Both the position numbers and the translations under genes were made by a program. The notes under the pieces are model-generated. The model was not told where the DNA came from, did no database searches, and saw nothing but the letters and a program-made list of their open reading frames with translations. Shown one piece after another: positions 342-32,627 of a stretch of DNA of 64,000 nucleotides. The DNA is from Candidatus Chisholmbacteria bacterium RIFCSPHIGHO2_01_FULL_52_32 (GTDB taxonomy: Bacteria; Patescibacteriota; Microgenomatia; UBA1400; Chisholmbacteraceae): assembly GCA_001816585.1 (NCBI GenBank), contig MHCJ01000003.1, positions 11,013-75,012 of the forward strand, read 5' to 3'. Every line of letters starts with the position of its first letter. Position 1 is the first letter of the stretch.

Positions 342-1757
342 ATGGCACGGAACGCTTCTTTTTTTGTCTGTCAACAGTGTGGAACCACTTTTCCAAAATG
401 GTCGGGAAGGTGTAGTCAGTGTGGGGCGTGGAACAGTCTCGTCGAAACGATGGTTTCGACGAGAACGCAAAACGCAAAACGCCACGCCAACGGGCGGGCA
501 GGCAAAACGCAAAACTTGGCAGTCAAACCAATAAGGCTTTCGGAGGTCACAGGGGTTGCCGAAAAAAGGATTCCGACCGGCATTGGGGAACTGGATCGAG
601 TCTTGGGCGGAGGGATTGTTCCCGGGAGTGTGGTCTTGGTTGCGGGGGAACCGGGGATCGGGAAAAGCACACTCTTAACGCAGCTAGCGTTAAGAGTAGC
701 AAATAGCATATGGCATATGGCAAATAGCAAAAGGGGAGAAACGAAACCATCTGCTATACGCCATACGCCATCTGCCGTACTGTATGTCTGTGGGGAGGAG
801 AATCCGGGGCAGATAAAGCTTCGAGTCGGTAGACTCGAGGCAAGTTTAAAATTCAAAGTGCAAAGTGCAAAGTTGTTTTTACTGCCCGAGGTGGATGTGG
901 ATGCGGTGGTTTCTACCATTGAAAAAGAGAAGCCCGGATTGGTGATTGTTGACAGTATCCAGACGATGATGACTGGTGATTTAACATCTTCGGCAGGAAG
1001 CGTGGGGCAAGTGAGCGAATCCACCCGTCGGTTGATTTCGGTTGCCAAGGCCCTTGAGGTTCCGGTGTTCCTCGTTGGCCACGTGACCAAAGAGGGGGCG
1101 ATTGCCGGACCAAAGATTTTGGAACATATGGTTGATGTGGTTTTGGAGCTTTCTGGGGATATGCAGCATGAATTTCGCCTGCTTCGGACGACCAAGAACC
1201 GGTTTGGGACGACGGATGAAGTTGGGGTGTTCGTCATGGAGGAGGTGGGCCTTGAGGAAGTATTGAATCCGTCTGACCGTTTCCTTGAGGATCGACAGGA
1301 CAAAGTCTCGGGGAGCGCGGTGGTTTGCGTCCTTGAAGGGACACGCCCGATGCTGGTTGAGATCCAAGCCCTTGTGGTGCCCAGCCAACTCGCAATCCCG
1401 CGGCGCGTGGCAAGCGGGGTAGATTTACGGCGGGTCCAAATCCTGGTCGCGGTATTGACCAAGCGTTGCGGGCTTCGCTTGGGCGATGCTGACGTTTATG
1501 TGAATGTTGCAGGAGGTCTTACGATCCGGGAACCGGCTTCGGATTTTGGCATCGCCATGGCAATTGCCTCAAGTAATCGGAATCGGGCTCTTCCAACAAA
1601 GACCGCATTTATCGGAGAAGTCGGACTTTTAGGGGAGGTTCGGAAGGTTGGGCGACTGAACCAACGCCTCGCCGAAGCAAAGGCGCAGGGATTTTCTCGG
1701 GTAGTTTCAGCCTCCGAGTACCGTTCTTTAGCTGCGGCGGTTCGCGCACTTCTATAA
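342..1757 (+). CDS. radA: DNA repair protein RadA/Sms
   Basis: N-terminal C4 zinc finger (CQQCG...CSQCGAW), RecA-like P-loop GEPGIGKST, KNRFG motif, C-terminal Lon-protease-like domain. ATG at 342. Carries in-frame heptamer-repeat insertions. Confidence 0.9.
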   Translation: MARNASFFVCQQCGTTFPKWSGRCSQCGAWNSLVETMVSTRTQNAKRHANGRAGKTQNLAVKPIRLSEVTGVAEKRIPTGIGELDRVLGGGIVPGSVVLVAGEPGIGKSTLLTQLALRVANSIWHMANSKRGETKPSAIRHTPSAVLYVCGEENPGQIKLRVGRLEASLKFKVQSAKLFLLPEVDVDAVVSTIEKEKPGLVIVDSIQTMMTGDLTSSAGSVGQVSESTRRLISVAKALEVPVFLVGHVTKEGAIAGPKILEHMVDVVLELSGDMQHEFRLLRTTKNRFGTTDEVGVFVMEEVGLEEVLNPSDRFLEDRQDKVSGSAVVCVLEGTRPMLVEIQALVVPSQLAIPRRVASGVDLRRVQILVAVLTKRCGLRLGDADVYVNVAGGLTIREPASDFGIAMAIASSNRNRALPTKTAFIGEVGLLGEVRKVGRLNQRLAEAKAQGFSRVVSASEYRSLAAAVRALL

Positions 1758-2783
1758 CTGATTCCTCATTTCCCCCAGGTTTTCCACACCTCCATTTGAG
1801 TTTTCCACACTTACCTTTCTTGTTCTTTTTTCCGCGAGTGTGATCAGGTTTTGGTTTGTAATTATTGTTACAGGCCTTTTTGTTTTATCCAAGTTTATTC
1901 CTATAGGATTTGACAGCTGTTGACAAATGTGTTAAGTTTGGAATTGATGCGGAAAGTCCAAAGACAGATACGAACATTTTTCCGTGGCTTAAGAAGCAGA
2001 AAAGCCCGAAGAATCAACCGCGAGAAGGGAGCGGTTGCATTTGTGACGCATCAGTTGAAAGACCTTGTCCGTTTGGATCAAAAGCTGATCCTCATGGGGA
2101 AGTGAAGCAAGTTGAAAATTTAACGTTAAAAGTTTGAAGTTTTGCGAGATAAATAAGGCTCACTACCGCTTGTCTGATGGAAAAGAGCATTACTACCGCA
2201 GCACGGTGGGCTCGAATAGCAATGCTCTTTCTTAAGAGTCGGCTCGCGTTCGGACAGGTGACGCGAAACCTAAAAGACACCATAACACGGGCTTGGCACC
2301 TTGTCAATCTTTCGCATTTTGTTTGAGTACTATTAGTGGACAACATGGATATTTCAGGTTCGACTACTTGAGTGGTGGGTGATGATCGGGCCCAGCCTAC
2401 GCAACACTGCTTTTCGCAGTCCACCAGCTGGCGGACTCGTGGGCCGGTTGCTTCGGCGGGCAGGCATGCTTGGCACGTTGGCTTATTCGACCAAGTCAGA
2501 CTGGGTTCGATAGGGATTGAATTCGACTGCTTTAGTGGTGGGTGATGTGTAGGGCAGGCGCATCACCCGCCTCTTGAGTAGTTGAGTTCAAGCTGGCAGA
2601 GGCTCGCTCTTCTTTCGCTTATCGTTTCGTTCTTGACAGATCGCTGGGAACTTGAAACAATGGGGGTTGTCTTAGACCTCTAGGGTTTTTCCTCAATGTG
2701 CATGCGAAAAACGTCTTTACGATTTGATTGAACATTCCGTTTCATGGCTATTTGCTTTTTCCATTGACCTTTCTTGTTTGTCT

Positions 2784-4229
2784 ATGGCAGTTCGCTCAAC
2801 AGCCTCCCGTTCCAAAACTTATTCCAAAATTCAGAAGGTTCCGGAGCTTGCTCCTGAGGATTTCGTCGGTCGAGTAGAGGAGCCTCAGACGGAGGTACCC
2901 GCACCCGCTGAACAAGAGGTGAACAATGTTGTTCCTCCTGAAGATACACCTCCACCCGTTCAACCACCGATTCAGACCCCGGTTGGGCCCCCACAGTTTC
3001 CGGCTTCGCCCCCTCCCCAACCCCAAGCGGGCTTATCCTTTAGCGGAATGGTCGATGATCGAGTTATACCCGATGCCGGTCTTCCGACGGAAAATGTCTC
3101 CGGGATACTAGATAAGAAACAGGAAGGTCATGGGTTACTCCGCCCTCATTTTTCTCCGAGCAACATGGATGTCTATATCTCTTCTTCCCAGATACGTCGG
3201 TTTGCGCTCCGCCCGGGAGACTTGGTGGAAGGCCCGGCGCGACGGCCAAAGGAGAACGAGCGCTATTGGGGACTCCTGAAAGTGGAGATTGTGAACGGTC
3301 ATCCGATCGGAGAGTTGGGGAGGCGACCGCACTTCGACGAACTCACACCCATTTTTCCTGAGGAGCGGTTGGCACTTGAGACCGGGAAAGATCCGCTCTC
3401 GGCCCGTCTGATTGATTTGGTGGCTCCGATAGGAAAAGGTCAGCGGGGCATGATTGTGTCTCCGCCCAAGGCGGGGAAGACAACGATTCTCAAGGATATA
3501 GCCTTGGGGGTAGCGGTCAATTACCCCAAAGTCCACTTAATGGCTGTTTTGATCGGTGAGCGGCCGGAGGAAGTGACGGATATTCGTCGCCACATCGAAA
3601 AGGTAACCAAAGGAACCGGGGAAGTGGCCTCTTCCAATTTCGATGAGCCAGCCGACCAGCAGACGGAGATAGCGGAGATGGCTTTAGAGCGGGCAAAACG
3701 GCTGGTGGAGATGGGAATGGATGTGGTCATCTTGCTCGACTCCATCACCCGTTTGGCACGTGCCTACAACTTAGCCATACCCACATCCGGACGGACTCTT
3801 TCCGGAGGATTCGATCCCGCGGCGTTGTATCCACCTAAGCGATTTTTCGGCGCAGCCAGGAACTTTGAACCTTTCGAGACGTTCGAGGGTAAGGCGTCGG
3901 GGTCCTTGACGATACTGGGGACCGCCCTCATCGATACGGGGAGCCGGATGGACGATTTGATCTATGAAGAGTTTAAAGGAACGGGGAATATGGAACTTCA
4001 CTTGGACCGGCATTTGGCAGAACGGCGGATCTATCCTTCCATTGATGTCCAGCGCTCCGGAACCAGAAAAGAAGAACTGCTGTTTGACTCGACGTCTTAC
4101 CAGAGTGTGGTTGTCATGCGGCGGATGATCGATGTCCTCGGCAAGGATGAGCGGACCGAGCTTCTCTTGGATCGGTTACGGAAGACAAAAAACAACAAGG
4201 AGTTCCTCGCTTCTCTGAAAGAAGGATAA
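2784..4229 (+). CDS. rho: Transcription termination factor Rho (Pro-rich N-terminal extension)
   Basis: RNA-binding domain then ATPase core (PIGKGQRGMIVSPPKAGKTT, RecA-like), C-terminal ...RSGTRKEELL. The first ATG is at 2784; the track ORF begins at an upstream TTG (2724). Confidence 0.88.
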   Translation: MAVRSTASRSKTYSKIQKVPELAPEDFVGRVEEPQTEVPAPAEQEVNNVVPPEDTPPPVQPPIQTPVGPPQFPASPPPQPQAGLSFSGMVDDRVIPDAGLPTENVSGILDKKQEGHGLLRPHFSPSNMDVYISSSQIRRFALRPGDLVEGPARRPKENERYWGLLKVEIVNGHPIGELGRRPHFDELTPIFPEERLALETGKDPLSARLIDLVAPIGKGQRGMIVSPPKAGKTTILKDIALGVAVNYPKVHLMAVLIGERPEEVTDIRRHIEKVTKGTGEVASSNFDEPADQQTEIAEMALERAKRLVEMGMDVVILLDSITRLARAYNLAIPTSGRTLSGGFDPAALYPPKRFFGAARNFEPFETFEGKASGSLTILGTALIDTGSRMDDLIYEEFKGTGNMELHLDRHLAERRIYPSIDVQRSGTRKEELLFDSTSYQSVVVMRRMIDVLGKDERTELLLDRLRKTKNNKEFLASLKEG

Positions 4230-4230
4230 G

Positions 4231-4352
<122 letters not shown>

Positions 4353-4357
<5 letters not shown>

Positions 4358-5690
4358 CCTTCTGTGTTTTATACTTGTGTGCGTTTGATTGGAGAGTATT
4401 CGTTATCCAGGTTGTCGCCTGCTTCAGTCCTACGGAAGTTACCAGAATAAGGATGAGCAGGGTTGGAATGAGGTACCGTTCAAAACCTGGGAGCTTCACG
4501 CGGGCGTAGGCGATGTTGACGACAATCCAGAAGATGGAGAGGGAGAGCAGAGAATGGCTCTGTGGATCGTTTTTTGCTCTCCTTAAGAGGCTATACCATC
4601 CGAACAGGAGCAACAGTGTGAGGAGGCTTTGAACGATGCGATATTTTGAGATCGAGATAAATACTGTCAGGATGTAGAGCGGCATCTCGAGAAAGCTAAA
4701 CTGTCCGAACGCCCGATAGAAAAGTTCCTGCTGGAGGATTCGAGAGCCAAAGAGGGCTCCCGTGCCTCGGATGGGATCCGCCCAGATCTCCGGTTCCAAA
4801 AAGAAGAACGTGGCAAGGAAAGAAAGGGTATACCCCGCGCAGAAGAATAGGAATCTTTTCCATTGTTGTTTGGAAATTGTGCTTGGGTGGGTGAGACAAA
4901 GCAGGGAAAAGTATAACCAGGGGAAGAAGAGGAGGAAGACTCCGGGGAGTTTGATGCTCGTAGTACACGCAATGAGCATTCCCAGGACGAATGAGGAGAG
5001 AAAAATACGGCTGTTTGAAAGTCGGGGAAGCTGATGAAGTGTTGCGACAAGTGCAGTTCCACTGATGAGGAGGAAGAGGACAAAAAAGGCGTCGGCTGTG
5101 GCAATCCCAAAAGTATTCCTTATGAGCGGATGCCATGCGCTAAAGACAGCGATAGAAAAGCCGATTTTCCAGTCTCGGGTTATATTGGTAGCGATCCATG
5201 CGAGAAACAGGATGGCCAGCAAACCCGCCGCTACGGAGGCGTATCGGATGAGAAGGATCGCATCGGTCACCTCAGAACCGAGTATGATTGCGGCCTCCTC
5301 CAGCGTTTTCCCTGTCGGGAGTACGTCAGTGTGAACGATGGCGTAGAGCCGGGTGCTTGTTTCCTCATCGACCATTTTTCTCCCGGTGCTTTGCAAAAGG
5401 AAACCGATGAGGTATTTCCCGAATTGCGGCTGGTCGAGGAGGCGGCGCTTCTGTGTTTCCCACCGAAGATATTTGAAGTCTTTTGGCAGCGAAAACCGTT
5501 CCCAATTGTTGTTTCGGCGATGCGTATAGAATTGGGCATCCAAGATCCAGGGAACCTCGTCAATGGAGAGGGTTATTTTCGGGACTAGGGAAATCCACAA
5601 GCCGTAGATCCAATAAACCCCAAGCATAACCAAGGGAATTTGCCACAGAAGAGAGCGCCAATACCTCCTTTTTCGCATCGGCTTAATCAT
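4353..5690 (-). CDS. Polytopic integral membrane protein, possibly GT-C-type glycosyltransferase (PMT/ArnT-like)
   Basis: 445 aa with many predicted transmembrane helices. Weak resemblance to glycosyltransferase family 39/83 membrane enzymes; not a firm family call. Confidence 0.45.
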
Positions 5691-5724
5691 TGCACATGTA
5701 TATCTGCTGTGCTAGGATGCTTGC

Positions 5725-6852
5725 TTGTCCCTCAATTATGGGGGAAGTATGCAGAGATTGGTCCGTTTCTTCCTTGAACTCCGGGAGTTTTCCCTAGCTT
5801 TATTTTCCTTTGCCTCACACCGGCTGGGAGGCGCGTTTTGGCGGTTTGAGCGCGGGAAGGGATTTTTTGTTTCCGCGCTTTACCGAAGACGGGGGCGATA
5901 CGCTCAGCCGTTTATCCATTCGGCAATGGCTGGTTTGGTGTTTGTTGCGGTCACGTTCGGGCCGCTTTTTATTGCCCAAACCTTTCCCGGCCAGGCCTCG
6001 TCGTTTGAGGAAGCATTACCCTCCGCGATCATCTTGGGGACTACTGCTGATTATGACCCTCCGGTTACCACCCTCATTTCCGAAAAGCCAAGATCAGAAG
6101 TGATTGAATACCAGGTTCAGACAGGGGATACGGTCAGTTCGATTGCCACAAAGTTCGGGGTTTCCATTGATACGGTGCTTTGGGCGAACGGAATGACGGA
6201 AACGCAACGGATACAACCGGGACAGACTCTCAAGATCCCTCCGGTTACCGGTGTTGTTCATTCGGTGCGGAAAGGCGATACGATTTATTCGATTGCCAAG
6301 AAGTATGAGGCGGAGGCACAGGCCCTGGTTGACTTTCCTTTTAATACATTTACGAATGATGAGACGTTTGCTTTGGCTGTGGGACAGATTGTCATTGTTC
6401 CAGACGGCGTGTTACCGGAGGTGAAGCCGGTGTCACCGGAGTCGATGATTGCGAAGGTGTTGACGCCGAGCGCGGGTGCGGTTTCGGCAACCGGGAATTT
6501 CGTTTGGCCGGCGGCGGGGCGGATTACGCAGCGATACGTGTGGTACCACCGCGGCATCGACATCGCAAACAAGGATGGGGGGCCGATTTTGGCGGCTGAC
6601 AGCGGAACGGTGGTCGTTGCCGGATGGCCGGACGGTCAAGGGTATGCAAACCGGGTGATCATCGATCACGGAAACGGACTCACGACGCTGTATGCGCATA
6701 TGTCGCGGGTACGCGTGGTTGCGGGACAGACGGTCAGTCGCGGAGATGTGATCGGAGATATGGGATGTACCGGCCGCTGTACCGGGACTCACCTTCACTT
6801 TGAGATCCGGGGCGGGGGCGGTTTTATGAACCCATCGGAGTATTTGAAGTGA
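5725..6852 (+). CDS. LysM-domain M23 family metallopeptidase (peptidoglycan hydrolase)
   Basis: Two LysM repeats (YQVQTGDTVSSIATKFGVS; HSVRKGDTIYSIAKKY) followed by an M23 core (HRGIDIA ... GCTGRCTGTHLHFEIR). The start could be TTG at 5725 or ATG at 5749. Confidence 0.85.
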   Translation: MSLNYGGSMQRLVRFFLELREFSLALFSFASHRLGGAFWRFERGKGFFVSALYRRRGRYAQPFIHSAMAGLVFVAVTFGPLFIAQTFPGQASSFEEALPSAIILGTTADYDPPVTTLISEKPRSEVIEYQVQTGDTVSSIATKFGVSIDTVLWANGMTETQRIQPGQTLKIPPVTGVVHSVRKGDTIYSIAKKYEAEAQALVDFPFNTFTNDETFALAVGQIVIVPDGVLPEVKPVSPESMIAKVLTPSAGAVSATGNFVWPAAGRITQRYVWYHRGIDIANKDGGPILAADSGTVVVAGWPDGQGYANRVIIDHGNGLTTLYAHMSRVRVVAGQTVSRGDVIGDMGCTGRCTGTHLHFEIRGGGGFMNPSEYLK

Positions 6853-6920
6853 GAAATTAGCTTCTTCGCTTCTTGGCTGCGAAAATCTTGAGGGTTTAAC
6901 GAGAGAGTGCTGTCGGGGTT

Positions 6921-7166
6921 TTAGTTTCTGCAGGTAAAGATGCGGCAGCCATTTTCATCGCGGTCGATGGTCCACTCTGTCGAGCAAATTTTTCCGCGCG
7001 GGATGATTGGGGCTTCACAGTTCTTCGGGAAGTAGGCGCGCCCAAGGATGTTGGTTTGTTGGGTTAGTGCCCAGATGAGGAGAGGAATGGTTGCCAGCAT
7101 GAGAATGATGAGGAGGATGGCGAGTTTATGGTGGGAGAGAAGAATGGTTTTTGCCACTGAACTCAA
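6921..7166 (-). CDS. Small membrane protein with C-terminal Cys pairs (hypothetical)
   Basis: 81-aa track ORF with one TM helix (AILLIILMLATIPLLIW) and a CEAP...CRIFTC tail. Coordinates taken from the ORF track. Confidence 0.3.
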   Translation of the reverse strand: MSSVAKTILLSHHKLAILLIILMLATIPLLIWALTQQTNILGRAYFPKNCEAPIIPRGKICSTEWTIDRDENGCRIFTCRN

Positions 7167-7167
7167 G

Positions 7168-7277
7168 GGTAGGGAATTAGGGAAGGGAAGTCAAGAGAAA
7201 TAGCGTTTAGCGATAAGCGTCTAGCGTCTAGTTCCTCAACCCTCAACCCCCAACCCTCAACCCTCGACCCTCGACCC
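7168..7277. repeat. Heptamer repeat tract (TAGGGAA/TAGCGxx then CCTCAAC/CCTCGAC)
   Basis: gggtagggaattagggaagggaag ... agcgtttagcgataagcgtctagcgtctag ... cctcaac cctcaac ccccaac cctcaac cctcgac cctcgac. Confidence 0.75.
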
Positions 7278-7453
7278 TATTCCTTGTCTTTTCTGTACTT
7301 TGCAAACTGGCGCTCACGAGCCTGAAACTTGGCGCGGCAGATGAGGCAGAAACTCGGGGGTTTAAGACCCTTTTGGCGGTAAAAGTCCTGTTCGCCATCG
7401 GTCCAGATGAATTCGTTACCGCAGTTTTGGCAGATAAGGGTGAGGTCGGACAT
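7277..7453 (-). CDS. Small zinc-ribbon protein (58 aa); not in the ORF track because it is under 60 aa
   Basis: Reverse-complement translation gives MSDLTLICQNCGNEFIWTDGEQDFYRQKGLKPPSFCLICRAKFQAREQFAKYRKDKE*, with two CxxC pairs. ATG at 7453-7451, TAG at 7279-7277. This is more plausible than the overlapping 7243..7464 track ORF. Confidence 0.5.
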   Translation of the reverse strand: MSDLTLICQNCGNEFIWTDGEQDFYRQKGLKPPSFCLICRAKFQARERQFAKYRKDKE

Positions 7454-7531
7454 GGGTTAGGCAATAGGCACTAGGGTATAGGGTTTAGGGAAAAAGCAGT
7501 AATGGCTGATAGCGAATAGCCAGTAGCCAAT
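7454..7531. repeat. Heptamer repeat tract (TAGGCAA/TAGGGTT/TAGCGAA types)
   Basis: ggttagg caatagg cactagg gtatagg gtttagg ... gctgatagcgaatagccagtagccaa. Confidence 0.7.
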
Positions 7532-7533
7532 TG

Positions 7534-7605
7534 TGGACCGTAGCGGGATCGAACCGCTGACCTTTTGCATGCCATGCAAACGCTCTACCAGCTGAGCTAA
7601 CGGCC
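7534..7605 (-). tRNA. tRNA-Ala (anticodon GGC)
   Basis: The reverse complement GGGCCGTTAGCTCAGCTGGTAGAGCGTTTGCATGGCATGCAAAAGGTCAGCGGTTCGATCCCGCTACGGTCCA folds as a cloverleaf. It has the G3:U70 alanine identity pair and anticodon loop AT-GGC-AT. Confidence 0.8.
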
Positions 7606-7682
7606 CTGGTGGACCTAGCCGGACTCGAACCGGCCACCTCACCCATGCGAAGGGTGCGCTCTACCAGATGAGCTATAGGCCC
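7606..7682 (-). tRNA. tRNA-Ala (anticodon CGC), CCA encoded
   Basis: The reverse complement GGGCCTATAGCTCATCTGGTAGAGCGCACCCTTCGCATGGGTGAGGTGGCCGGTTCGAGTCCGGCTAGGTCCACCA has G3:U70 and anticodon loop TT-CGC-AT. Confidence 0.8.
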
Positions 7683-7765
7683 TCAGGCAGATATTTTAAC
7701 ATAGTAACTCTGTCTCTGTCCTTATTCATCTCGTAAAGGAGGAGATGGTTGGGGGAAAGAAGGTA

Positions 7766-8770: not shown

Positions 8771-8897
8771 GGGGCGGTATGGTACCAGTTTTGCGACCTT
8801 GCTGCAAGGCGTGTAGAATATTTAGGAGTAAGGAGTCATTCGGATCCTTCGACTACGCTCAGACAAGTTCGCTCAGAATAAATAAGGAGTAGGGAGA

Positions 8898-11513
8898 ATG
8901 GAGATATACGATCATCGAAAGATAGAACGTCGCTGGCAGAAGATGTGGAAAGAAGCGAGGATCTATCAGCCTGATCTTCGCAAGGCAAAGAAACCGTTCT
9001 ACAACCTGATGATGTTTCCGTATCTCTCGGCAGAAGGACTGCATGTCGGGAATATGTATGCCTTTACGGGGGCGGATATCTATGGGCGATTTAAGCGGAT
9101 GCAAGGCTATGATGTGTTCGAACCCATCGGGTTGGACGGGTTTGGGATCCACTCGGAAAATTATGCAATGAAGATCGGGAAGCATCCGGCGGAGCAGGCG
9201 AAGCTGTCTCAGAAGCGGTTCTACGCGCAACTCCATGACATCGGTAACAGTTTTTCTTGGGAGAATACCCTTGAGACTTTTGATCCTGTCTATTATCGGT
9301 GGACACAGTGGCTGTTTGTGCAGATGTTTAAACACGGACTCGCGGTGCGTAAAAAGGCGATGGTGAATTGGTGCCCTTCATGCAAGACCGTTTTGGCGGA
9401 TGAGCAGGTGGAGGGAGGGGTGTGTGAGCGGTGCGGGACACCCGTTGAGCGCCGAGAGATGGCGCAGTGGTTTTTCCGGATTACCGACTTTGCAGAGCGG
9501 TTACTTGGGAACCTTGAAACGCTCAATTGGCCGGAGAAGATCAAAATCGCACAGAGGAACTGGATTGGCAGGAGGGATGGCGCAGAGGTTGGATGGGTGG
9601 TCGATGGCACCAGAGAGGTTCTTTGGACCTTCACAACGCGTCTGGACACGATTTTTGGGGCGACGTTCCTTGTTATAGCTCCTGAGCATCCCACAGTAGC
9701 GGATCTGATGAGTTCAAAGTTTAAAGTGAAAAGTGAAAAGTTAGAAAATGTAAGAGTCTACGTCGAGGCGGCGCTCAAGAAAACGGAGCAGAAGCGGAAG
9801 ACGACAGAAAAAGAGAAGACGGGCGTTGATACCGGTTTGAGGGTGATCCATCCTCTGACCGGCGGGAAAATTCCAGTCTGGATTGCCGATTTTGTGTTGA
9901 TGGATGTGGGAACCGGTGTCGTCATGGGTGTGCCTGGACACGATCAGCGCGACGGGGACTTTGCCCGGAAGCACAATCTCCCGATTATCAAGGTCATCGA
10001 TGTTGGTGGGCGGGAGGTGCAGCAGGCAGCGGTTACGGAATTTGGCAGTTTGGTGACTTCCGGGGAATTTGACGGGCTTTCTTCTTTGGAGGCGATGGAG
10101 AGGATTCTTGAGCGTTTAGCGTCGCAAGGAACGGGAAAAAAGAAAGTTGCGTACCACCTCCGTGACTGGCTGATCTCAAGGCAGCGCTATTGGGGCCCGC
10201 CGATCCCGATGATTTTTTGTGAGCAATGTGCCAAGGAGGGAAGGGCCTTTAAAGGAGACTCCCTGAAAGGTACCCTGAAAGGTATGGCGGGGTGGTGGCC
10301 GGTTCCTGAAGGGGATTTACCGGTTGAACTTCCTTTTGTTTCAGACTACAAGCCGATTGGGGACGGAAGATCTCCTCTTGAGAGGGCGTCGGAATCCTGG
10401 CTCTACACCAAGTGCCCCAGGTGCGGGGGAAGGGCCAAAAGAGAGACGGATGTGTCGGATACCTTCCTGGACAGCTCGTGGTATTTTCTTGCCTACCCAA
10501 ATCTTGGAACGGAGGAGTGGACCCGAAAAAAAATTGCTAAATTGATCAATGGTCAAATTGCTCGTAACAATACAACAATGCAACCATTTAACAATACGGT
10601 AACCCGCCGGTGGTTGCCTGTCGATGCGTATATCGGTGGCGCGGAGCATGCGGTGTTACACCTTTTGTACAGCAGGTTCGTGACGATGGCGCTTCATGAC
10701 TGGGGTTACCTTTCCTTTGAAGAGCCTTTCCCGTTTTTGTTCAGCCACGGTTTGATCATCAAGGAAGGGGCGAAGATGAGCAAGAGCCGGGGGAATATCG
10801 TCACGCCCGATGATTATATTCGAAAGTTCGGTTCTGATACATTAAGATCTTATTTGATGTTTATAGGACCATATGATCAAGGAGGAGATTTTCGCGATAC
10901 GGGGACTCTAGGGATGTACCGCTTCCTGATGCGAGTCTGGCGACTCTATCAGGAAAGTTCGAAGTTGGGGGAGAAGACGGATCCGAACCTGGTCGGGCCG
11001 CTGCACCGTATGACCAAGCAGGTGACAGAGGATCTTGAAAAGTTCCGCTTCAATACGGCTCTGGCAAAATTGATGGAGTTTATCAATGCATGGGAGGACG
11101 GGAAAATGCTTTCTTGGGATGACGCAGGGATTTTCTTGAGACTATTGGCTCCGTTTGCGCCGCATATGAGCGAGGAATTGTGGCACAATTTGCCGAAAAA
11201 ACATACCTGCCTCGATTTGAATTGTATTCTTAAAGGGTTGCGGGGAAAGCCATTTTCTCTCTCGAGCATCCATGTGGCTCCTTGGCCGGCGTATGATGTA
11301 ACGCTGGCGGCATTTGGCGATCTCGAAATCGTGGTTGAGGTCAACGGAAGGGTGCGGGGGAAGATTTTGGTTGCGGCCGAGAAGGCGAACGATCGTTCGG
11401 AGACTATTCGTCTGGCTCAAAAGATACCAGGAGTGGCAGCTCATCTCTCGGGAAAACAGATAACAAAGACGATTTGGGTGGAGGGAAAACTGGTGAATTT
11501 CGTTGTCTCGTAG
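8898..11513 (+). CDS. leuS: Leucyl-tRNA synthetase
   Basis: HVGNMYAFTGADIYGRFKRMQGYDV (HIGH region), editing domain, KMSKS motif. SD aaggag lies upstream of the ATG at 8898. Contains an in-frame heptamer tract and a REP-like insert. Confidence 0.92.
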   Translation: MEIYDHRKIERRWQKMWKEARIYQPDLRKAKKPFYNLMMFPYLSAEGLHVGNMYAFTGADIYGRFKRMQGYDVFEPIGLDGFGIHSENYAMKIGKHPAEQAKLSQKRFYAQLHDIGNSFSWENTLETFDPVYYRWTQWLFVQMFKHGLAVRKKAMVNWCPSCKTVLADEQVEGGVCERCGTPVERREMAQWFFRITDFAERLLGNLETLNWPEKIKIAQRNWIGRRDGAEVGWVVDGTREVLWTFTTRLDTIFGATFLVIAPEHPTVADLMSSKFKVKSEKLENVRVYVEAALKKTEQKRKTTEKEKTGVDTGLRVIHPLTGGKIPVWIADFVLMDVGTGVVMGVPGHDQRDGDFARKHNLPIIKVIDVGGREVQQAAVTEFGSLVTSGEFDGLSSLEAMERILERLASQGTGKKKVAYHLRDWLISRQRYWGPPIPMIFCEQCAKEGRAFKGDSLKGTLKGMAGWWPVPEGDLPVELPFVSDYKPIGDGRSPLERASESWLYTKCPRCGGRAKRETDVSDTFLDSSWYFLAYPNLGTEEWTRKKIAKLINGQIARNNTTMQPFNNTVTRRWLPVDAYIGGAEHAVLHLLYSRFVTMALHDWGYLSFEEPFPFLFSHGLIIKEGAKMSKSRGNIVTPDDYIRKFGSDTLRSYLMFIGPYDQGGDFRDTGTLGMYRFLMRVWRLYQESSKLGEKTDPNLVGPLHRMTKQVTEDLEKFRFNTALAKLMEFINAWEDGKMLSWDDAGIFLRLLAPFAPHMSEELWHNLPKKHTCLDLNCILKGLRGKPFSLSSIHVAPWPAYDVTLAAFGDLEIVVEVNGRVRGKILVAAEKANDRSETIRLAQKIPGVAAHLSGKQITKTIWVEGKLVNFVVS

Positions 11514-11551
11514 GCGACCTTATCCGATTTGTTTGATCTTTGCTTGCCTCT

Positions 11552-12181
11552 ATGGACGCAACGTTTGACTTCCGACAGGCTTTCGAGGAGCATAAGGCGC
11601 GGTTTCTGCTGGTTTTCCTTGGCTTGTTCCTCATTGGTGTGGGAGCCCTCTCGCTGGTTGTTTTAACTTTTCAACGATCAGAACCTCAGATTGAGGTGAT
11701 TTCTTCTTCCCGGCCTTCGCCTGCGGAAGGAGGAGAAATTGTTGTCGATGTGGCTGGTGCGGTTGAGAAACCGGGGGTTTACCGGCTGGCTTCCGGGGCT
11801 CGTGTGAACGATGCGTTGCTGGTTGCCGGGGGTATATCCGCCGAGGCAGATCGGGAGTGGTTGACTAAATATATCAATCTTGCTCAAATACTTTCAGACG
11901 GTATTAAAGTGTATATTCCAAGGGTCGGAGAAATTTCCGAGGGAACGGCGCCTGTTTTGGGTAAAACCGATAGTGAAGTCATTGGACTTACGCAGGAGCA
12001 TAAAATCAATCTCAACACGGCTTCGGTTTCAGAACTCGATTCTCTTTGGGGGATCGGAGAGACGCGGGCTCAGACAATTATTGGCAATCGACCGTATTCC
12101 TCCGTTGAGGAGTTGTTGGAGAAACGGATTGTTCCCAGCAATGTCTTTGAGCGGATTAAAGATGAGGTCAGCGTTCAGTAG
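11552..12181 (+). CDS. comEA: Competence protein ComEA (SLBB + helix-hairpin-helix DNA-binding)
   Basis: N-terminal TM anchor, central SLBB-like region, C-terminal tandem HhH (INLNTASVSELDSLWGIGETRAQTIIGNRPYSSVEELL). ATG at 11552; the track starts at TTG 11540. Confidence 0.75.
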   Translation: MDATFDFRQAFEEHKARFLLVFLGLFLIGVGALSLVVLTFQRSEPQIEVISSSRPSPAEGGEIVVDVAGAVEKPGVYRLASGARVNDALLVAGGISAEADREWLTKYINLAQILSDGIKVYIPRVGEISEGTAPVLGKTDSEVIGLTQEHKINLNTASVSELDSLWGIGETRAQTIIGNRPYSSVEELLEKRIVPSNVFERIKDEVSVQ

Positions 12182-12287
12182 GAGTTTTTGGGAAGTTTGT
12201 CGAATATTACATAGCATTTCATACAAAAGCCCAAGAATTTTATTGTTTGCACGGTAAAGCTTTTTCTGTTCTTGTTGCATTATTTTG

Positions 12288-13571
12288 ATGTACTTTAATC
12301 GTTTATTATTGCTATTGATACCTCTTGTACTGGTTTGGGTTTTCCGCGTGTTTTTGATGACTCGGAACGCAGAGCGCTATCCCGATCGATCACCGGTCCG
12401 CGTTCGCGGGAGGGTGTCTTCCCAACCATATCAATATAAATCAAAGCAGATCATGGAGGTGGGGATGATTTTGGTCTATACTACGCCTTTTCCCCAGTAC
12501 TCCTATGGTGATTTCGTGGACTTGTCTGGCAGCCTCAGAAGGGAAGTGACAGGCTTCGGTAAACCAAAAATGAGTCTGATGTATCCAACAATTCGCGTTG
12601 TTGATAAAGAAGAGTTCGGGGGTGGTTTTGGTCTTATCTCCCTGCAGGCTTGGCTGAGCCGCTTGCGGAGTCGGATCCACCAGAATTTCTCAAGTTTTTT
12701 ACCGGAGCCCCAAGCCTCGCTCCTATCCGGAGTCGTGTTGGGCGCTAAAGGACGGATTCCGGATGATTTTCTGACTGCCCTTCGACGGACAGGGACGATC
12801 CATGTGGTGGTGGCCTCGGGGTATAACGTAACCATGGTTGCCGGACTTCTGTCTGCTCTTTTTTTACGGTTTCTTTCGCGTCGTTTGGCGATTCCCTGCG
12901 TGATTGTGGGGATCGCCCTCTACGCGATGCTGGCAGGCGCTGATTCACCCATTATCCGGGCCTCCATCATGGGAAGCTTGGCTTTTATCGCCCAGTATTT
13001 CGGGCGACAGTACTTGGCGGTCTGGGGGCTTGTTGCCGCATCCCTGTTGATGCTTGTGGTTTCCCCTTTCGCGTTGTTTGACGTCGGATTTGAACTTTCG
13101 GTTGCGGCGACGGCCGGAATTTTATTGGTTTCTCCGGCGATCTTGGGTTTACTAGGACGGGTCCGGTGGTTCGGTTATATTGCCGAGGAATTAGCGGTTA
13201 CCCTCGGAGCGCAACTGGCTGTTTTACCGATTCTCCTTATCTACTTCCGTCAAGCGAGTTGGCTTTCGTGGTTGGTCAACCTTTTGACGGTTCCGCTTAT
13301 CCCATTTCTCATGGTTCTTGGAGGTGTGGTGGCTGTCACAAGCTTGGTATGGCAGGAACTTGCCTTTGTGGGCGCTCTTTTATCCTGGGTGCCGTTGACC
13401 GTTTTTGTCAGTGTGGTTTCTTGGTTTGACCGGCTGCCTTTCGGGGTGTTTCAGATTTCTGCCCTCTCGTGGTGGTGGGCCATAGGTTACTATTTGGTGC
13501 TTGGCTATTTGGTTTGGCGTCAGTCTCAAAAAGGGAGGTTGACACGGGAAGACAGGCGTTTCGTCTCTTGA
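12288..13571 (+). CDS. comEC: ComEC/Rec2 DNA internalisation channel, N-terminal and transmembrane part (apparently split from the following ORF)
   Basis: Polytopic competence-domain TM region. Ends at 13571 and overlaps the next ORF, which is in another frame. Confidence 0.7.
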   Translation: MYFNRLLLLLIPLVLVWVFRVFLMTRNAERYPDRSPVRVRGRVSSQPYQYKSKQIMEVGMILVYTTPFPQYSYGDFVDLSGSLRREVTGFGKPKMSLMYPTIRVVDKEEFGGGFGLISLQAWLSRLRSRIHQNFSSFLPEPQASLLSGVVLGAKGRIPDDFLTALRRTGTIHVVVASGYNVTMVAGLLSALFLRFLSRRLAIPCVIVGIALYAMLAGADSPIIRASIMGSLAFIAQYFGRQYLAVWGLVAASLLMLVVSPFALFDVGFELSVAATAGILLVSPAILGLLGRVRWFGYIAEELAVTLGAQLAVLPILLIYFRQASWLSWLVNLLTVPLIPFLMVLGGVVAVTSLVWQELAFVGALLSWVPLTVFVSVVSWFDRLPFGVFQISALSWWWAIGYYLVLGYLVWRQSQKGRLTREDRRFVS

Positions 13572-14440
13572 GTTTGGGGTTTCTGATCGGTGTCGGACTC
13601 GTCCTTGGCGTTGGCGCTTCTCTTCCTGACGGGCGGCTGCATATGGTGGTTTGCGATGTCGGTCAGGGCGACGCTATTCTTCTGACTTTCCGATCGAGAC
13701 AGATTCTCGTGGATGGGGGGCCGGATGACCGGGTGGTTGATTGTCTGTCACGGCATATGCCGTTTTGGGACCGGGCGCTTGAAGTAATCGTCCTGACGCA
13801 CCCCCAGGCGGATCATATGAATGGCCTGGTGGATGTGTTGAGGCGATACGATGTTTCGGAAGTGTTCTTGACCGGTGCAACCAATACAACGGATGGTTTT
13901 ATGGCTTTCAAAGCGGCAGTTTTGCAGGAGGGGGCAAGCTTGCACTTTGCCCGAAGGGGAGATGAAATCCGGCTTGAACCCCTGGCCCTGACAGTGGTAT
14001 GGCCGAAAGCGGCGATCGGAACTCTTGCTTCTTTTAGGAAGGAAGCAATTGACGCAGCGGTCCTCGGTGAAACAACCGCAACGGACGTGAATGAGACATC
14101 GGTCGTTCTTCTGGCACAGTTTGGGACGTTTCGGGCTCTGATGACTGGTGATATCGGGATTGATACCGAGCAAGCACTACTCCGTTCGGGAGCGCTAAAT
14201 CGCGTGGACGTCCTAAAAGTTGCGCACCACGGGTCTAAATACGCTACTTCTTCGGATTTTCTTAGTGTCATTCGACCTCAATTGGCTTTGATTTCGGCCG
14301 GAAAGAAGAACCGTTACGGACATCCGACTAGTGATACTTTGATGCGGTTAGATAGTGTTGGGGCAGAAATTCTACGGACCGATGAGCGAGGAGATATTGA
14401 AATCATGTCGAATGGAGAGGATTATTGGGTTTTGGAGTGA
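13469..14440 (+). CDS. comEC: ComEC C-terminal part: TM helix plus metallo-beta-lactamase domain (frameshifted continuation)
   Basis: HMVVCDVGQGDAILL, VLTHPQADHMNGL, VAHHGS match the ComEC MBL nuclease-like domain. It is in a different frame and overlaps the previous ORF by about 100 bp. The junction is somewhere in 13470-13570. Confidence 0.7.
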   Translation: MVVGHRLLFGAWLFGLASVSKREVDTGRQAFRLLSLGFLIGVGLVLGVGASLPDGRLHMVVCDVGQGDAILLTFRSRQILVDGGPDDRVVDCLSRHMPFWDRALEVIVLTHPQADHMNGLVDVLRRYDVSEVFLTGATNTTDGFMAFKAAVLQEGASLHFARRGDEIRLEPLALTVVWPKAAIGTLASFRKEAIDAAVLGETTATDVNETSVVLLAQFGTFRALMTGDIGIDTEQALLRSGALNRVDVLKVAHHGSKYATSSDFLSVIRPQLALISAGKKNRYGHPTSDTLMRLDSVGAEILRTDERGDIEIMSNGEDYWVLE

Positions 14441-14610
14441 CCCGCCTATGTTCCAGATATTTCGTCTTGATCATTAGTCAAGACTCCATTCTGGGCACGA
14501 TTGCGGGCTAGTGGTGAGCGATACTGGGTAGTAAAGTAGCGTAAATATTTGCGACTGTATTTGAAGATTCATAGGCGGTTCCCGTTCTCTTAACCTGATA
14601 TACTGGGCAT

Positions 14611-16524
14611 ATGCTTGCAGAGGAGATCAAGGTTCAGGTTCAAAAGGCGCTCAAAGAGTTGGATTTTCCGGAGGTGCCGATTGTTATTGAGCATCCTAGT
14701 TCGGCAGAGCATGGGGACTATAGCTCGAATGTTGCGTTGCAACTTTTCGCTAAATCCGAAGCACGAAGCACGAAGCACGAAAAAACATCACAGCTCGCTA
14801 AGTATAAAACTCCTAGGGAAATCGCAAAGGCGATTGCTGACTATTTCGGATTTCGGATTTCGGATTTCGGATTTCTTCATAAAGTGGAGTTAGCGGGGCC
14901 GGGGTTTATCAATTTTTGGCTTTCCGAGCAGTTTTTGTCAGACACGCTTAAGCAGGCAATACATCTGGGAGACAGGTATGGGCAGAACGAAGCACTCAAA
15001 GGGAAAAAGATCATGGTGGAGTTTACCGATCCCAACCCGTTTAAAGAGTTTCACATTGGGCACCTGTACAGCAATGCGGTGGGGGAATCTTTGTCGCGAC
15101 TCTTGGATGCAAGTGGCGCCCAAGTAAAACGTGCGAACTACCAAGGAGATGTGGGGTTGCATGTCGCCAAGGCCCTTTATGGGCTCTTGGCGAAGTTAAA
15201 AGTTAAAAGTGAAAAGTTAAAAGTTAATGAGGAGAAGCTTAAGGAGCTTGAGAAGAAACAACTCGCAGAGCGGATCCGAATATTGGGTGAGGCGTATGCG
15301 GTGGGAGCTAAAGCCTATGAAGCGGATGAGAAAGCAAAAGCCCAGATCGAGGAGCTCAACCGAAAGATTTACGCACAGGAGCCGGATGTGATGGAGATAT
15401 ATGGGAAGGGCCGGGCCTGGAGTTTGGAGTACTTTGAGACGATTTACCGGCGGCTCGGAACCAAGTTTGATTTCTACTACTTCGAGTCGGAGGCGGGAAA
15501 AATCGGGCTTGAAGTGGTGAAGGGGGGCTTACGGAAAGGTGTTTTCGAAGAAAGCCAAGGGGCAATCGTTTTCTCCGGAGAAAAACACGGATTACATACG
15601 CGGGTCTTTGTCAACTCACAGGGTTTGCCAACCTATGAGGCAAAAGACTTGGGATTGGCGCCGACGAAATACAAGGATTTTCCCTATGACAAGTCCATCA
15701 TCATTACGGGTAATGAAGTTGATGCGTATTTCAGGGTGGTTTTGAAAGCACTGGCGCTTCTTTCCCCCGAGCTTGGGGAAAAGACGCAACATCTTTCCCA
15801 TGGGATGGTGCGGTTGCCAACAGGAAAGATGTCGAGCCGGACAGGTGAAGTGCTCACCGGCGAATGGCTCATCGATGAGGCGAAAAAGAGGATCTTGAGG
15901 ATAATGGAGCAGGGACCCTCCTTCGCAACTGCGACTTCGCGCAGACTGCCTGTTCGGCCGTTTCGCGAATCGGTTGCTTTGGAGGGTGATAAGCGCGATG
16001 GGGAAATTGTATCGCGCTTGTCAAAAGATGAGGTGGCGGAGATGGTTGGCATCGGGGCGGTCAAATATGCATTGCTTCGAGGGAGTATCGGACGGGATAT
16101 CATTTTTGACATTGATGAATCGGTGAACTTGGAAGGGAACAGCGGGCCGTACCTCCAATACACTTTTGCAAGATGCAAAAGTGTATTGGCAAAATCCGAA
16201 GCACGAAGCACGAAGCACGAAGCAGTTTCGAATTTCGATATTCGAGCTTCGAATTTGAATGCTGAGGATCTCAGCATTCTGCGTTGGTTGTATCGGTATC
16301 CGGAGGTGGTGGAGCAGGCAGTGAAGGGGTATGCACCATACTTGGTGTGTGCTTACCTCTATGGATTGGCGCAGCGATACAATGCCTTTTACAACAAACA
16401 CAGGATTGTTCAGACTAAGAAGGAAGAGGAGAGAAGGTTTCGTCTGATGATGACCAGTGCAATCGCCCAAATTCTTGAGAACGGACTTAAGCTCCTTGGT
16501 ATTGCAGCTCCGGAAACCATGTGA
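14611..16524 (+). CDS. argS: Arginyl-tRNA synthetase
   Basis: N-terminal Arg-tRNA-binding domain, HIGH-like FHIGHLYSNAVGESL, class I catalytic core, C-terminal DALR anticodon-binding domain. Four in-frame heptamer-repeat inserts. Confidence 0.92.
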   Translation: MLAEEIKVQVQKALKELDFPEVPIVIEHPSSAEHGDYSSNVALQLFAKSEARSTKHEKTSQLAKYKTPREIAKAIADYFGFRISDFGFLHKVELAGPGFINFWLSEQFLSDTLKQAIHLGDRYGQNEALKGKKIMVEFTDPNPFKEFHIGHLYSNAVGESLSRLLDASGAQVKRANYQGDVGLHVAKALYGLLAKLKVKSEKLKVNEEKLKELEKKQLAERIRILGEAYAVGAKAYEADEKAKAQIEELNRKIYAQEPDVMEIYGKGRAWSLEYFETIYRRLGTKFDFYYFESEAGKIGLEVVKGGLRKGVFEESQGAIVFSGEKHGLHTRVFVNSQGLPTYEAKDLGLAPTKYKDFPYDKSIIITGNEVDAYFRVVLKALALLSPELGEKTQHLSHGMVRLPTGKMSSRTGEVLTGEWLIDEAKKRILRIMEQGPSFATATSRRLPVRPFRESVALEGDKRDGEIVSRLSKDEVAEMVGIGAVKYALLRGSIGRDIIFDIDESVNLEGNSGPYLQYTFARCKSVLAKSEARSTKHEAVSNFDIRASNLNAEDLSILRWLYRYPEVVEQAVKGYAPYLVCAYLYGLAQRYNAFYNKHRIVQTKKEEERRFRLMMTSAIAQILENGLKLLGIAAPETM

Positions 16525-19777: not shown

Positions 19778-19799
19778 AAGTGAAAAGTTGGGAGAAGGG

Positions 19800-20264: not shown

Positions 20265-20350
20265 AGATAGGCATTAGGCACTAGGCAATAGGGTAGAGGG
20301 TAAAGGGAGAAGTCTTCGGTTTTCAGTCTTCAGTTTTTTAAGCCGAGTGA
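20265..20350. repeat. Heptamer repeat tract (TAGGCAx/TAGGGTA then TTCAGTC types)
   Basis: agatagg cattagg cactagg caatagg gtagagg gtaaagg ... cttcggt tttcagt cttcagt ttt. Confidence 0.75.
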
Positions 20351-20930: not shown

Positions 20931-20965
20931 ATTTAAAGACCTTGAAAGGTCTGACCTTTCAAGGT
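20931..20965. repeat. REP palindrome doublet (ACCTTGAAAGGTCTGACCTTTCAAGGT)
   Basis: Perfect inverted 12-mers ACCTTGAAAGGT / ACCTTTCAAGGT. The same element recurs at about 21447-21475, 21660-21695, 29668-29703, 39463-39493 and 51815-51852. A variant CCTTTAAAGGAGNCTCCCTGCAAGG occurs at 10252-10285, 20355-20385, 36690-36720 and 51146-51180. Confidence 0.8.
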
Positions 20966-21651: not shown

Positions 21652-21699
21652 AATATTTATCCTACCTTGAAAGGTCTGACCTTTCAAGGTTGGTGTTTG

Positions 21700-29580: not shown

Positions 29581-29735
29581 CGTTTTGATTCTGGCAAGAA
29601 GTGTTGTGGCTGTCAAGCATATCCGGATGAATCTTCGAGCGGAATCCTGAAAAGAAGCAGGATTACCAACCTTGAAAGGTCAAACCTTGCAAGGTTGGGT
29701 GGACAGAGGGTTTGGATGGTCTGTACAATGAAGCT

Positions 29736-30392: not shown

Positions 30393-30396
30393 CCCA

Positions 30397-32608: not shown

Positions 32609-32627
32609 TTTGACTTTTGTACTTAAT

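Follow-up and report, generated by a model that had tools for sequence, protein, structure and literature searches.

Why do genes for essential enzymes contain tandem arrays of a seven-nucleotide unit, a length not divisible by three, and how did the arrays come to be there? The question is raised by a 64,000-nucleotide stretch of contig MHCJ01000003.1 (hereafter the window) from the groundwater organism Candidatus Chisholmbacteria bacterium RIFCSPHIGHO2_01_FULL_52_32, in which heptamer arrays lie within radA and within the leucyl- and arginyl-tRNA synthetase genes, leuS and argS. The ArgS protein (window 14611-16524) is 100% identical to the ArgRS of Candidatus Chisholmbacteria bacterium RIFCSPLOWO2_01_FULL_50_28, a member of the Microgenomates in the candidate phyla radiation (CPR). 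Genomes in the CPR are tiny, and essential proteins there are taken to be under tight constraint; yet about one third of the ArgRS and RadA proteins sampled here carry peptides derived from 7-nt repeats, and at two sites strains that are otherwise ~98-100% identical hold unrelated alleles. The tracts are heptanucleotide simple-repeat arrays of the type called long simple sequence repeats (LSSR) or short tandemly repeated repetitive (STRR) sequences, and they pervade this genome and CPR genomes generally. We think it probable that the arrays are tolerated in permissive loops and that the segments bearing them are shuffled between lineages by recombination.

Results

Heptamer arrays are carried in frame by three conserved genes

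The genes concerned are the following.

342-1757, + strand: radA coding sequence, 471 aa (from the list of open reading frames [ORFs] and translation; E = 8e-116 against S. pneumoniae RadA, 5lkm)
8898-11513, + strand: leuS coding sequence, 871 aa (E = 2e-200 against T. thermophilus LeuRS, 1h3n)
14611-16524, + strand: argS coding sequence, 637 aa (intact ORF, strong match to a solved ArgRS structure)

Tandem Repeats Finder (TRF) identified ten in-frame period-7 arrays within them: four in radA (464-482, 697-731, 756-771 and 854-873), one in leuS (9711-9743) and five in argS (14757-14781, 14843-14875, 15193-15227, 16197-16224 and 16226-16260). An earlier, sequence-only reading of the window had reported in-frame tracts in these genes, and TRF finds an array at every position it named; the peptides it quoted are all present in the translations, AKSEARSTKHE twice in ArgS. 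Only its count of five AACGCAA copies at 464-515 was too high, as can be seen from the first entry below.

464-515, + strand: AACGCAA array in the linker after the RadA zinc finger; 2.7 perfect copies, 21 nt of degenerate GC-rich sequence, 1.7 copies (TRF)
693-782, + strand: radA hairpin segment; two arms around a 17-nt loop, encoding ANSIWHMANSKRGETKPSAIRHTPSA
854-873, + strand: (CAAAGTG)x2.9 array in radA, encoding FKVQSAK (TRF)
9711-9743, + strand: (AAAGTKA)x4.7 array in leuS, encoding SSKFKVKSEKL (TRF)
14752-14900, + strand: argS segment 1; 5' arm, 61-nt loop, 3' arm and ~25 nt beyond
15193-15227, + strand: (AAGTTAA/AAGTGAA)x5 array in argS, encoding AKLKVKSEKLKV (TRF)
16186-16260, + strand: argS segment 2; AAATCC(GAAGCAC)x4 as 5' arm, followed directly by (TTTCGAA-like)x5 as 3' arm (TRF)

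The tract at 464-515 amounts to an insertion of ~8 aa relative to CPR relatives, in a linker (residues 40-48) that reads ARSTKHEAR, a translated (GAAGCAC)n array, in 21 other RadA homologues of one lineage. The NCBI record gives RadA as a 435-aa protein starting at Met37, thereby losing the conserved zinc-finger N-terminus (window 342-452); ENA, Logan and SRA-derived calls give 471 aa, and the alternative start lies just 5' of the AACGCAA tract. The radA hairpin segment directly follows the Walker-A helix and has (TAGCAAA/TGGCATA)x5 at 697-731 as its 5' arm and GCTATAC/GCCATAC/GCCATCT/GCCGTAC at ~750-780 as its 3' arm. In argS segment 1, AAATCC(GAAGCAC)x3.6 (14752-14781) and (ATTTCGG)x4.7 (14843-14875) flank a 61-nt loop that codes for a native ArgRS helix. 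The two copies of AKSEARSTKHE, at ArgS residues 47-57 and 527-537, are encoded by a 36-nt direct repeat, 94% identical and spaced by 1440 nt (480 codons), and the two 5' arms also have flanking bases outside the arrays in common.

The proposal that the tracts are insertions stands for some of them. Alignment with S. pneumoniae RadA (5lkm) opens gaps of ~7, 21 and 6 residues at the RadA tracts, the second corresponding to the hairpin segment, and the leuS tract adds 6 aa relative to 1h3n (in the relative L001 this site is occupied by NSKFKIQSSKLRE, which is equally long). Others are replacements: the array at radA 854-873 stands where relatives have an equally long segment without repeats (32-38% identity in this stretch), argS 14843-14875 takes the place of a native segment of about equal length, and so does argS 16197-16260 in comparison with the P. 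horikoshii ArgRS.

No coding tract contains an in-frame stop, though the array units include stop triplets and off-frame stops are frequent: five in the leuS tract, six in argS 15187-15234 and three in radA 693-737. In radA 693-737 the third unit has TGG instead of the TAG that the consensus would place in frame; in argS 15193-15227 the third unit has GAA instead of TAA, the single G-variant unit being the one with the would-be stop; and the leuS tract has TTA where TGA would fall in frame. The variant units thus lie exactly at the would-be in-frame TAG, TAA and TGA, showing, at the level of sequence, that the ribosome would read through the tracts. The expectation that tract lengths in coding DNA be multiples of three is not borne out, most of the coding arrays (16-35 nt) having other lengths; only the net indel must be such a multiple, which makes the length test uninformative.

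AlphaFold models cover RadA and ArgS. In RadA, the predicted local distance difference test (pLDDT) score is below 50 over residues 38-74 and 123-142, and residues 169-177 (the 854-873 array) form a loop without secondary structure. In ArgS, confidence is low at residues 56-58, pLDDT is below 50 at 533-538, and residues 196-206 (the 15193-15227 array) have no secondary structure (pLDDT 68-75). Hence all three RadA sites and three of the four ArgS sites have either pLDDT below 50 or no predicted secondary structure, in agreement with an anticipated placement in surface loops; FGFRISDFGF (ArgS residues 78-88) departs from it, lying in a confident helix/strand region. The models thus show the coding copies in a few permissive loop sites, most of which are predicted to be disordered. 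ArgS also has a 30-aa non-heptamer insertion, FATATSRRLPVRPFRESVALEGDKRDGEIVS, at window 15900-16010 (residues ~434-470), found only in this ArgRS and with pLDDT below 50.

Array-bearing segments and their flanks have discordant histories

Two sites, argS segment 1 and the radA hairpin, were compared among strains; the exchanged segments measure 110-150 nt. In the 5' flank of the argS segment, three relatives (L001, L130 and L131) are 94.5-97.7% identical to each other and a fourth (L129) is 87.5% identical to each of them. Within the segment the four are mutually only 40-48% identical, except for L001 and L130 at 92%. L131 and L130, for example, drop from 97.7% in the flank to 48% in the segment; L129 bears a different array at this site, and L131 none, so divergent that neither can be aligned here. 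The window stands in the opposite relation to L001 and L130, with 61-64% identity in the 5' flank and 87-91% in the segment (61% and 90.6%, respectively, for L130). The radA site behaves likewise. Identity between L006 and L132 falls from 98-100% in the flanks to 54.5% in the segment, L133 has a third allele, and the window is 89% identical to L006 in the segment and 69-78% in the flanks.

In codon alignments of the window with its relatives, third-position identity forms islands of 0.75-0.95 in a near-saturated background of 0.2-0.5, and their positions match the argS site-1 and radA hairpin segments exactly (argS segment 1 versus L001, 0.75-0.95 against 0.3-0.5 elsewhere). The multi-strain DNA alignments explain the islands by the different history of the segments. 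They show array-bearing segments of 110-150 nt that differ completely between near-identical strains and yet are common to distant lineages, a discordance that indicates short-patch recombination. The differences between lineages and the recent turnover suspected in the sequence-only reading are thereby supported, strains with 98-100% identical flanks carrying completely different alleles. An origin specific to this lineage is not supported: other lineages also have the leuS tract and the array pairs of argS (14757/14843) and radA (697-780). The exchanged radA tract takes in ~25 nt of upstream coding sequence, and the only place where a metagenome scan recovered the hairpin's loop sequence was radA itself, in two lineages. 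Short-patch homologous recombination therefore fits better than transposition.

A comparison of copy number among strains had also been proposed. No variation was found, in copy number or in length, among 16 population variants of RadA, LeuS and ArgS, so that the tracts do not behave as phase-variable loci in this sample, and none in copy number across four assemblies or samples of the relative (L001-L004; 21.8 kb). The only indel among these four in the 21.8 kb is a 37-bp non-heptamer direct duplication in L004 (~14390-14427), which splits the ORF of an M16 peptidase and is either a strain variant or an assembly error.

The same loop sites receive heptamers across the CPR

For each unit length, the complete set of 8-residue peptides that perfect tandem arrays could specify was compiled and sought in homologues of the two proteins. 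(A search for 7-aa periodicity was dropped as too insensitive, coding arrays being at most 35 nt long, and this test replaced it.) A perfect heptamer-array peptide is present in 43 of 120 ArgS and 33 of 119 RadA homologues. The period-5 control gave no match in either set, and the period-8 control, for which the peptide set is four-fold larger, gave none in ArgS and one in RadA. Matches in ArgS cluster at residues 45-105, 135-220 and 450-540, three hotspots that coincide with the sites in the window; those in RadA lie either in the linker that follows the zinc finger or behind the Walker-A helix, one lineage accounting for 21 of them. The units are mostly A-rich (AAAAGTC, AAAATTC, AAATCTC, AAATCCG, AAGCACG). 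In alignments, further Microgenomates have heptamer-like peptides of other kinds at these sites, and loci of Levy-, Roizman- and Wildermuthbacteria have arrays inside leuS, argS or ileS. These data show that the same loop sites are hotspots for many different heptamers across the CPR.

The arrays as such are not confined to this group. (CGAAGCA)3 was considered as the marker of a CPR-specific family and rejected, since the array is present in many phyla: a scan of genome contigs found the exact 21-mer in at least 119 loci (L007-L125), with hosts that include Streptomyces, Planctomycetes, Verrucomicrobia, Acidobacteria, Bacteroidetes and CPR. One Alphaproteobacteria metagenome-assembled genome from Rifle has at least nine such loci, some of them perfect inverted arrays. 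In L001, a (GGAGTAA)x7.4 array (3557-3608) lies directly 5' of the leuS start codon and runs into it, presenting seven tandem Shine-Dalgarno-like GGAG motifs with TAA after each.

Paired arrays, hairpins and the question of mobility

Six of the ten coding arrays make up three pairs with partly complementary units, CGAAG pairing with UUUCG and AUAGC/AUGGC with GCUAU/GCCAU. In the predicted folds, each 7-nt module contributes ~5 base pairs and a 2x2 mismatch to a long imperfect hairpin. Against shuffled sequences, radA 690-785 gives z = -3.6 to -3.9 in the sense strand and z = -7.9 (-43.6 kcal/mol) in the antisense strand; argS 14750-14882 folds in the + strand only (-39.7 kcal/mol, z = -4.6) and argS 16190-16266 in both (z = -2.5 on +, -3.3 on -). 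The four single coding arrays have no significant fold (z -1.1 to +1.0). One intergenic pair also folds:

32524-32619, + strand: intergenic hairpin pair; (AGTTAAA)n, spacer, (ACTTTTG-like)n (z = -3.5 on the + strand)

The notion that all tract pairs are hairpins was abandoned, the intergenic combinations (TAGGGTN)n+(TCAGTTT)n and (ATAGCRA)n+(CCCTCAA)n giving z values of -0.1 to +2.1.

Could the paired arrays be miniature mobile palindromic elements, akin to Rickettsia palindromic elements (RPE), miniature inverted-repeat transposable elements (MITE) or the hairpin-forming doublets (REPIN) of repetitive extragenic palindromic (REP) sequences? An enzyme such as a Y1 (HUH) transposase, acting on single-stranded hairpins, would insert them, and only in-frame insertions in loops would survive. 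We hold this to be unlikely, though the three coding hairpin pairs speak for it, as does the recurrence of a composite, (CGAAGCA)n-spacer-(TTTCGRA)n, in argS of the window (twice), in leuS of L001 (5309-5377) and in radA of L005, as well as in loci of Gemmata, Parcubacteria, Saccharibacteria and Desulfobacterales. Ten of the 119 (CGAAGCA)3 loci have an in-phase (TTCGNNN) array of at least three units within 220 nt, as against 3 of 1951 control windows, and a non-repeat core, AAATGTTCAAAATTCAAAA, is common to L005, L093 and L083. Long hairpins with 7-nt periodicity and this core are seen in L083, L093, L097 and L104.

A candidate enzyme, resembling REP-associated tyrosine transposases (RAYT), is encoded in the window, together with a second repeat family:

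20959-21687, - strand: RAYT-like Y1/HUH transposase gene (Pfam Y1_Tnp, E = 5e-10; NHFHLL and RYIHKNP motifs)
20939-20965, 21448-21474, 21664-21690, 29669-29695, 39458-39484 and 51824-51850: 27-nt palindromes
10244-10283, + strand: REP-like palindrome CCTTTAAAGG..CCCTGAAAGGT in leuS; in frame, encoding FKGDSLKGTLKG, inside a 20-aa insertion relative to 1h3n

Against NCBIfam REP_Tyr_transpos the RAYT-like protein reaches 45 bits, under the cut-off of 80. Copies of a dispersed 27-nt double palindrome, ACCTTGAAAGGT-CTG-ACCTTTCAAGGT, flank its gene; the REP-like CCTTNAAAGG-type palindrome, often as the 27-nt double unit, has 31 matches against 1.1 expected. One 27-nt copy is in frame within the RAYT-like ORF itself (FTLKGSTFQG) and another lies within a GT4 glycosyltransferase gene. 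The element present in leuS recurs in leuS (5042-5066) and argS (~11496-11520) of L001, with translated FKG..LKG motifs, and the latter copy sits exactly where the window has the heptamer hairpin at 16186-16260. These loops therefore accept several kinds of hairpin-forming repeats, and the coincidence at one ArgS site is a further point for mobility. In a Levybacteria locus (L126), where the leuS-argS region is syntenic, a Y1_Tnp gene (6572-7276) adjoins comEC/MBL genes, and RAYT-like genes may be conserved residents of Microgenomates genomes.

Several observations argue against mobile elements nonetheless. The RAYT-like gene is flanked by the 27-nt palindromes and not by heptamer arrays, so that within the window the REP/RAYT arrangement is displayed only by the separate palindrome family. 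The radA hairpin was rejected as a dispersed mobile element upon the metagenome scan described above; the flanking gene sequence included in the exchanged radA tract fits homologous recombination, not precise insertion; and in argS segment 1 the stretch between the arms codes for native ArgRS. Target-site duplications were not observed, and four of the ten coding arrays have no partner.

Possible signs of function in the hairpin segments

Another explanation would have the tracts kept because they are useful, either as RNA or DNA structures (in regulation, pausing or as recombination signals) or as Lys/Ser/Glu-rich disordered peptides that aid nucleic-acid-binding enzymes. Both hairpin segments display strong synonymous-site conservation, and many of the encoded peptides are Lys-rich. 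In radA the hairpin energy is nearly the same in the window and in L006 (-43.6 and -43.3 kcal/mol), five of the seven differences at paired positions keep the pair, and the stop-removing TAG to TGG change in the 5' arm is mirrored by GCTAT to GCCAT in the 3' arm. The five pair-keeping changes are all one-sided, however, and with two breaks and no double compensatory change they are about what is expected for transitions; the comparison of the window with L006 is not significant. The strand preferred for folding varies (antisense in radA, sense at argS site 1), significant folding has been lost from the argS segment of L001 (z = 0.3), and near-identical strains bear unrelated alleles or, like L131, no array. 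The peptides are, moreover, very heterogeneous (FGFRISDFGF, NSIWHMAN, KVKSEK). We consider maintenance by function to be quite improbable.

Coding arrays are a minority of the arrays in the window

The window contains ~36 period-7 tandem arrays, against none in shuffled sequences and 0-2 of other periods. TRF arrays consist of 2.3-9.3 head-to-tail copies with 75-100% matches. Exact runs of period 7 number 18, compared with none in shuffled sequences and 0-3 for the remaining periods of 4-15; the lenient scan yields 27 arrays of period 7 and 0-2 for the other periods of 5-12. The excess is also present in relatives. With gene limits taken from a longest-ORF map, partly checked with Pfam, arrays occupy 102 nt/kb of intergenic DNA versus 7.7 nt/kb of ORF DNA (~10% and 0.8% of the sequence), a ~13-fold intergenic bias.

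Coding arrays being far sparser than intergenic ones, the coding tracts are best regarded as a tolerated minority and not as the target of the process. This bears on the mechanism put forward in the sequence-only reading, a mutational process aimed at coding DNA and inserting blocks of 21-63 nt. The crowding of ten arrays into three genes of the window's first 16 kb might have suggested it, but the intergenic density contradicts it, several tracts replace native sequence instead of adding to it, and the same unit families occur between genes, as that reading had itself noted and TRF confirms. Such a process is very improbable. That the tracts are assembly or sequencing artefacts, for which nothing was found, can be dismissed: independent NCBI, JGI, ENA, Logan and SRA-derived assemblies (up to 13 contigs) give identical proteins of identical length with unchanged tracts, and the four independent assemblies of the relative agree over 21.8 kb.

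Most intergenic arrays start within ~10 nt of a stop codon. A recurrent layout, in the sense of the upstream gene and on either strand, consists of the stop codon, (TAGGGTN)3-5 and a second, T-rich array:

30396-30477, + strand: stop codon, (TAGGGTN)n, (TCAGTTT)n (TRF); the same layout at 20267-20337, 45919-45987 and 47619-47702
4231-4354, no strand assigned: intergenic array pair between convergent genes, (ATAGCRA)x9 and (CCCTCAA)x5.6 (TRF)

The (CCCTCAA)x5.6 array of the second entry is (TTGAGGG)n directly 3' of the stop codon of the minus-strand gene. (TAGGGTN)3-5 arrays are found a few bases from stop codons at 20267, 30396, 39193, 40480, 45912 and 47619 (+) and, in the minus-sense orientation, at 4316-4354, 7234-7278 and 34038-34074. 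They place TAG in all three frames, and may act as terminators, 3'-end protectors or backup stops; the TAGGGTT form, a telomere-type repeat (TTTAGGG), could form G-quadruplexes. The identity of TAGGGTT with the plant telomere unit prompted us to consider telomerase-like templated addition, which was set aside in view of the coexistence of at least eight unit families; no reverse transcriptase was found among the ~45 window proteins scanned. An (AGTTAAA/AGTGAAA) array at 19758-19789 covers the last codons and TAA stop of the M16 peptidase gene and extends up to the ndk start, and therefore supplies both the stop codon and a short intergenic spacer. Another (TAGGGTN) array, at 62694-62730, lies between the ribosomal protein L10 leader (62742-62851, - strand; Rfam RF00557, 46.9 bits) and the downstream ORF. 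Apart from this leader, the Rfam scan of the window returned only four tRNAs and no family matching any tract. GC skew is positive in 31 of 32 2-kb bins (-0.01 to 0.26) with no sign switch, and AT skew is mostly negative, a pattern that fits a single replichore with strong strand-asymmetric mutation.

Discussion

How, then, might the arrays have arisen and come to be shared? Both the mechanism that generates them and the reason for the 7-nt unit are matters that we infer. Slipped-strand or unequal-recombination events with a preference for 7-nt units would create and extend the arrays, and those dispersed in one genome may be homogenised by conversion between them. The latter step is suggested by the 36-nt copy at two argS sites and by the use of genome-specific units at orthologous leuS and argS sites (AAAGTKA in the window, AAATTCA in L001). 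Short-patch homologous recombination would then move shared segments between lineages. comEA, comEC and radA are all present within the window, and natural transformation could therefore supply the DNA. The resulting peptides would mostly be neutral disordered filler of loops.

Some points weigh against this account of tolerated and recombining arrays. Slippage was not observed: in the absence of copy-number variation among the four samples of the relative (21.8 kb) and the 16 protein variants, the arrays are not hypermutable on that timescale. Growth by a single unit shifts the frame of an essential gene, so that steps of three units or the import of pre-formed alleles would be needed. Slippage alone leaves the complementary arm pairs unexplained, and the recurrence of the same few unit families across genes, lineages and phyla is unlike random seeds and may suggest a source with sequence specificity. 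The 13-fold figure comes from a crude ORF map, drawn from longest ORFs.

A bolder view, doubtful but worth keeping in mind, is that the hairpin segments made of heptamer arrays are a distinct recombinogenic, possibly selfish class of DNA in the CPR. By making sites fragile or prone to pairing, paired arrays would promote their own passage from lineage to lineage, through short-patch recombination of DNA taken up or through a sequence-specific enzyme, and would thereby keep rewriting surface loops of essential proteins. If this were true, a common molecular mechanism, and not chance, would lie behind the appearance of the same units and arm pairs in different phyla.

The account we favour, tolerance of the arrays in loops and exchange of the segments, would explain concretely how disordered loops in proteins can be generated and renewed by simple-repeat DNA together with recombination. 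It also calls for caution in the alignment, phylogeny, gene calling and strain typing of CPR genomes, as exemplified by the RadA start in the NCBI record, and it offers a natural test case for why 7 nt is a favoured long-repeat unit in bacteria.

Among known systems, the tracts come closest to LSSR (Mrazek et al. 2007) and cyanobacterial STRR, with which they share head-to-tail 7-nt arrays and several unit families per genome. In many bacteria no class of long simple sequence repeats is more abundant than the heptanucleotides, for which a model of polymerase-footprint slippage has been put forward (Mrazek 2007, as summarised in PMC4679880 and PMC4692102). As described in these summaries, LSSR and STRR resemble the present arrays also in being over-represented versus other periods and in lying mostly between genes. 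The present arrays differ in their CPR host, in their units, in that many are translated in essential genes, in the complementary pairs formed by some, and in the exchange of two array-bearing segments between lineages. In the strict sense they are not STRR, the host not being a heterocystous cyanobacterium and no TRF unit matching the published STRR units.

RPE were reportedly described by Ogata et al. in 2000. They are likewise hairpin-forming repeats placed in frame in essential genes, including those for aminoacyl-tRNA synthetases, and tolerated in surface loops (reviewed in PMC10969869). In-frame placement in conserved protein genes at surface positions is found here too; hairpin-forming palindromes are seen in the three pairs (z -2.5 to -7.9) and not in the four single arrays. 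RPE, however, are dispersed 100-150 bp copies of a conserved sequence, whereas here the arms are short heptamer arrays and the loops are unrelated or native coding sequence. Many dispersed full-length copies, as expected of RPE- or MITE-type elements, were not found in this material: the radA element was seen in no other gene, the argS copies have just the 36-nt arm in common, and the spread looks like allelic recombination, not transposition.

For the intergenic arrays, though not for the coding tracts, a parallel exists in the GGGAATC/GGGGAYT repeats of Xanthomonas and Nostoc (PMC4692102), G-rich heptamers in the sense strand at most ~50 nt from stop codons, typically with about four units. 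The (TAGGGTN)n arrays follow stop codons in the same manner, and G-quadruplexes are possible; the unit differs (TAGGGTT). The TAACTGA repeats of marine Beggiatoaceae, cyanobacteria and Bacteroidetes (PMC4679880) are a case of one heptamer found across distant phyla with no known transfer mechanism, its use on the coding strand being limited by stop codons inside the unit. The TCAGTTT/TCAGTCT arrays of the window resemble TCAGTTA, the reverse complement of TAACTGA, but TAACTGA genomes have a single dominant unit upstream of start codons, and here many units occur after stops and inside genes.

As in REPIN systems (PMC3116915), the window has a RAYT-like Y1 gene flanked by a dispersed 27-nt double palindrome. 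This family is distinct from the heptamer arrays and, unlike classical REPs, also occurs in frame in leuS, in the glycosyltransferase gene and in the RAYT-like gene itself. The tandem repeats of Borgs (PMC9879509) are similar in that recent repeats in ORFs add or replace intrinsically disordered segments. Their in-gene units are divisible by three; with the 7-nt unit, all three frames of the unit are translated and a change by a single unit would shift the frame. Literature searches found no description of translated heptamer arrays, or of their exchange, in the CPR. Heptanucleotide repeats, then, were already known; translated, exchangeable loop cassettes in essential CPR genes are new.

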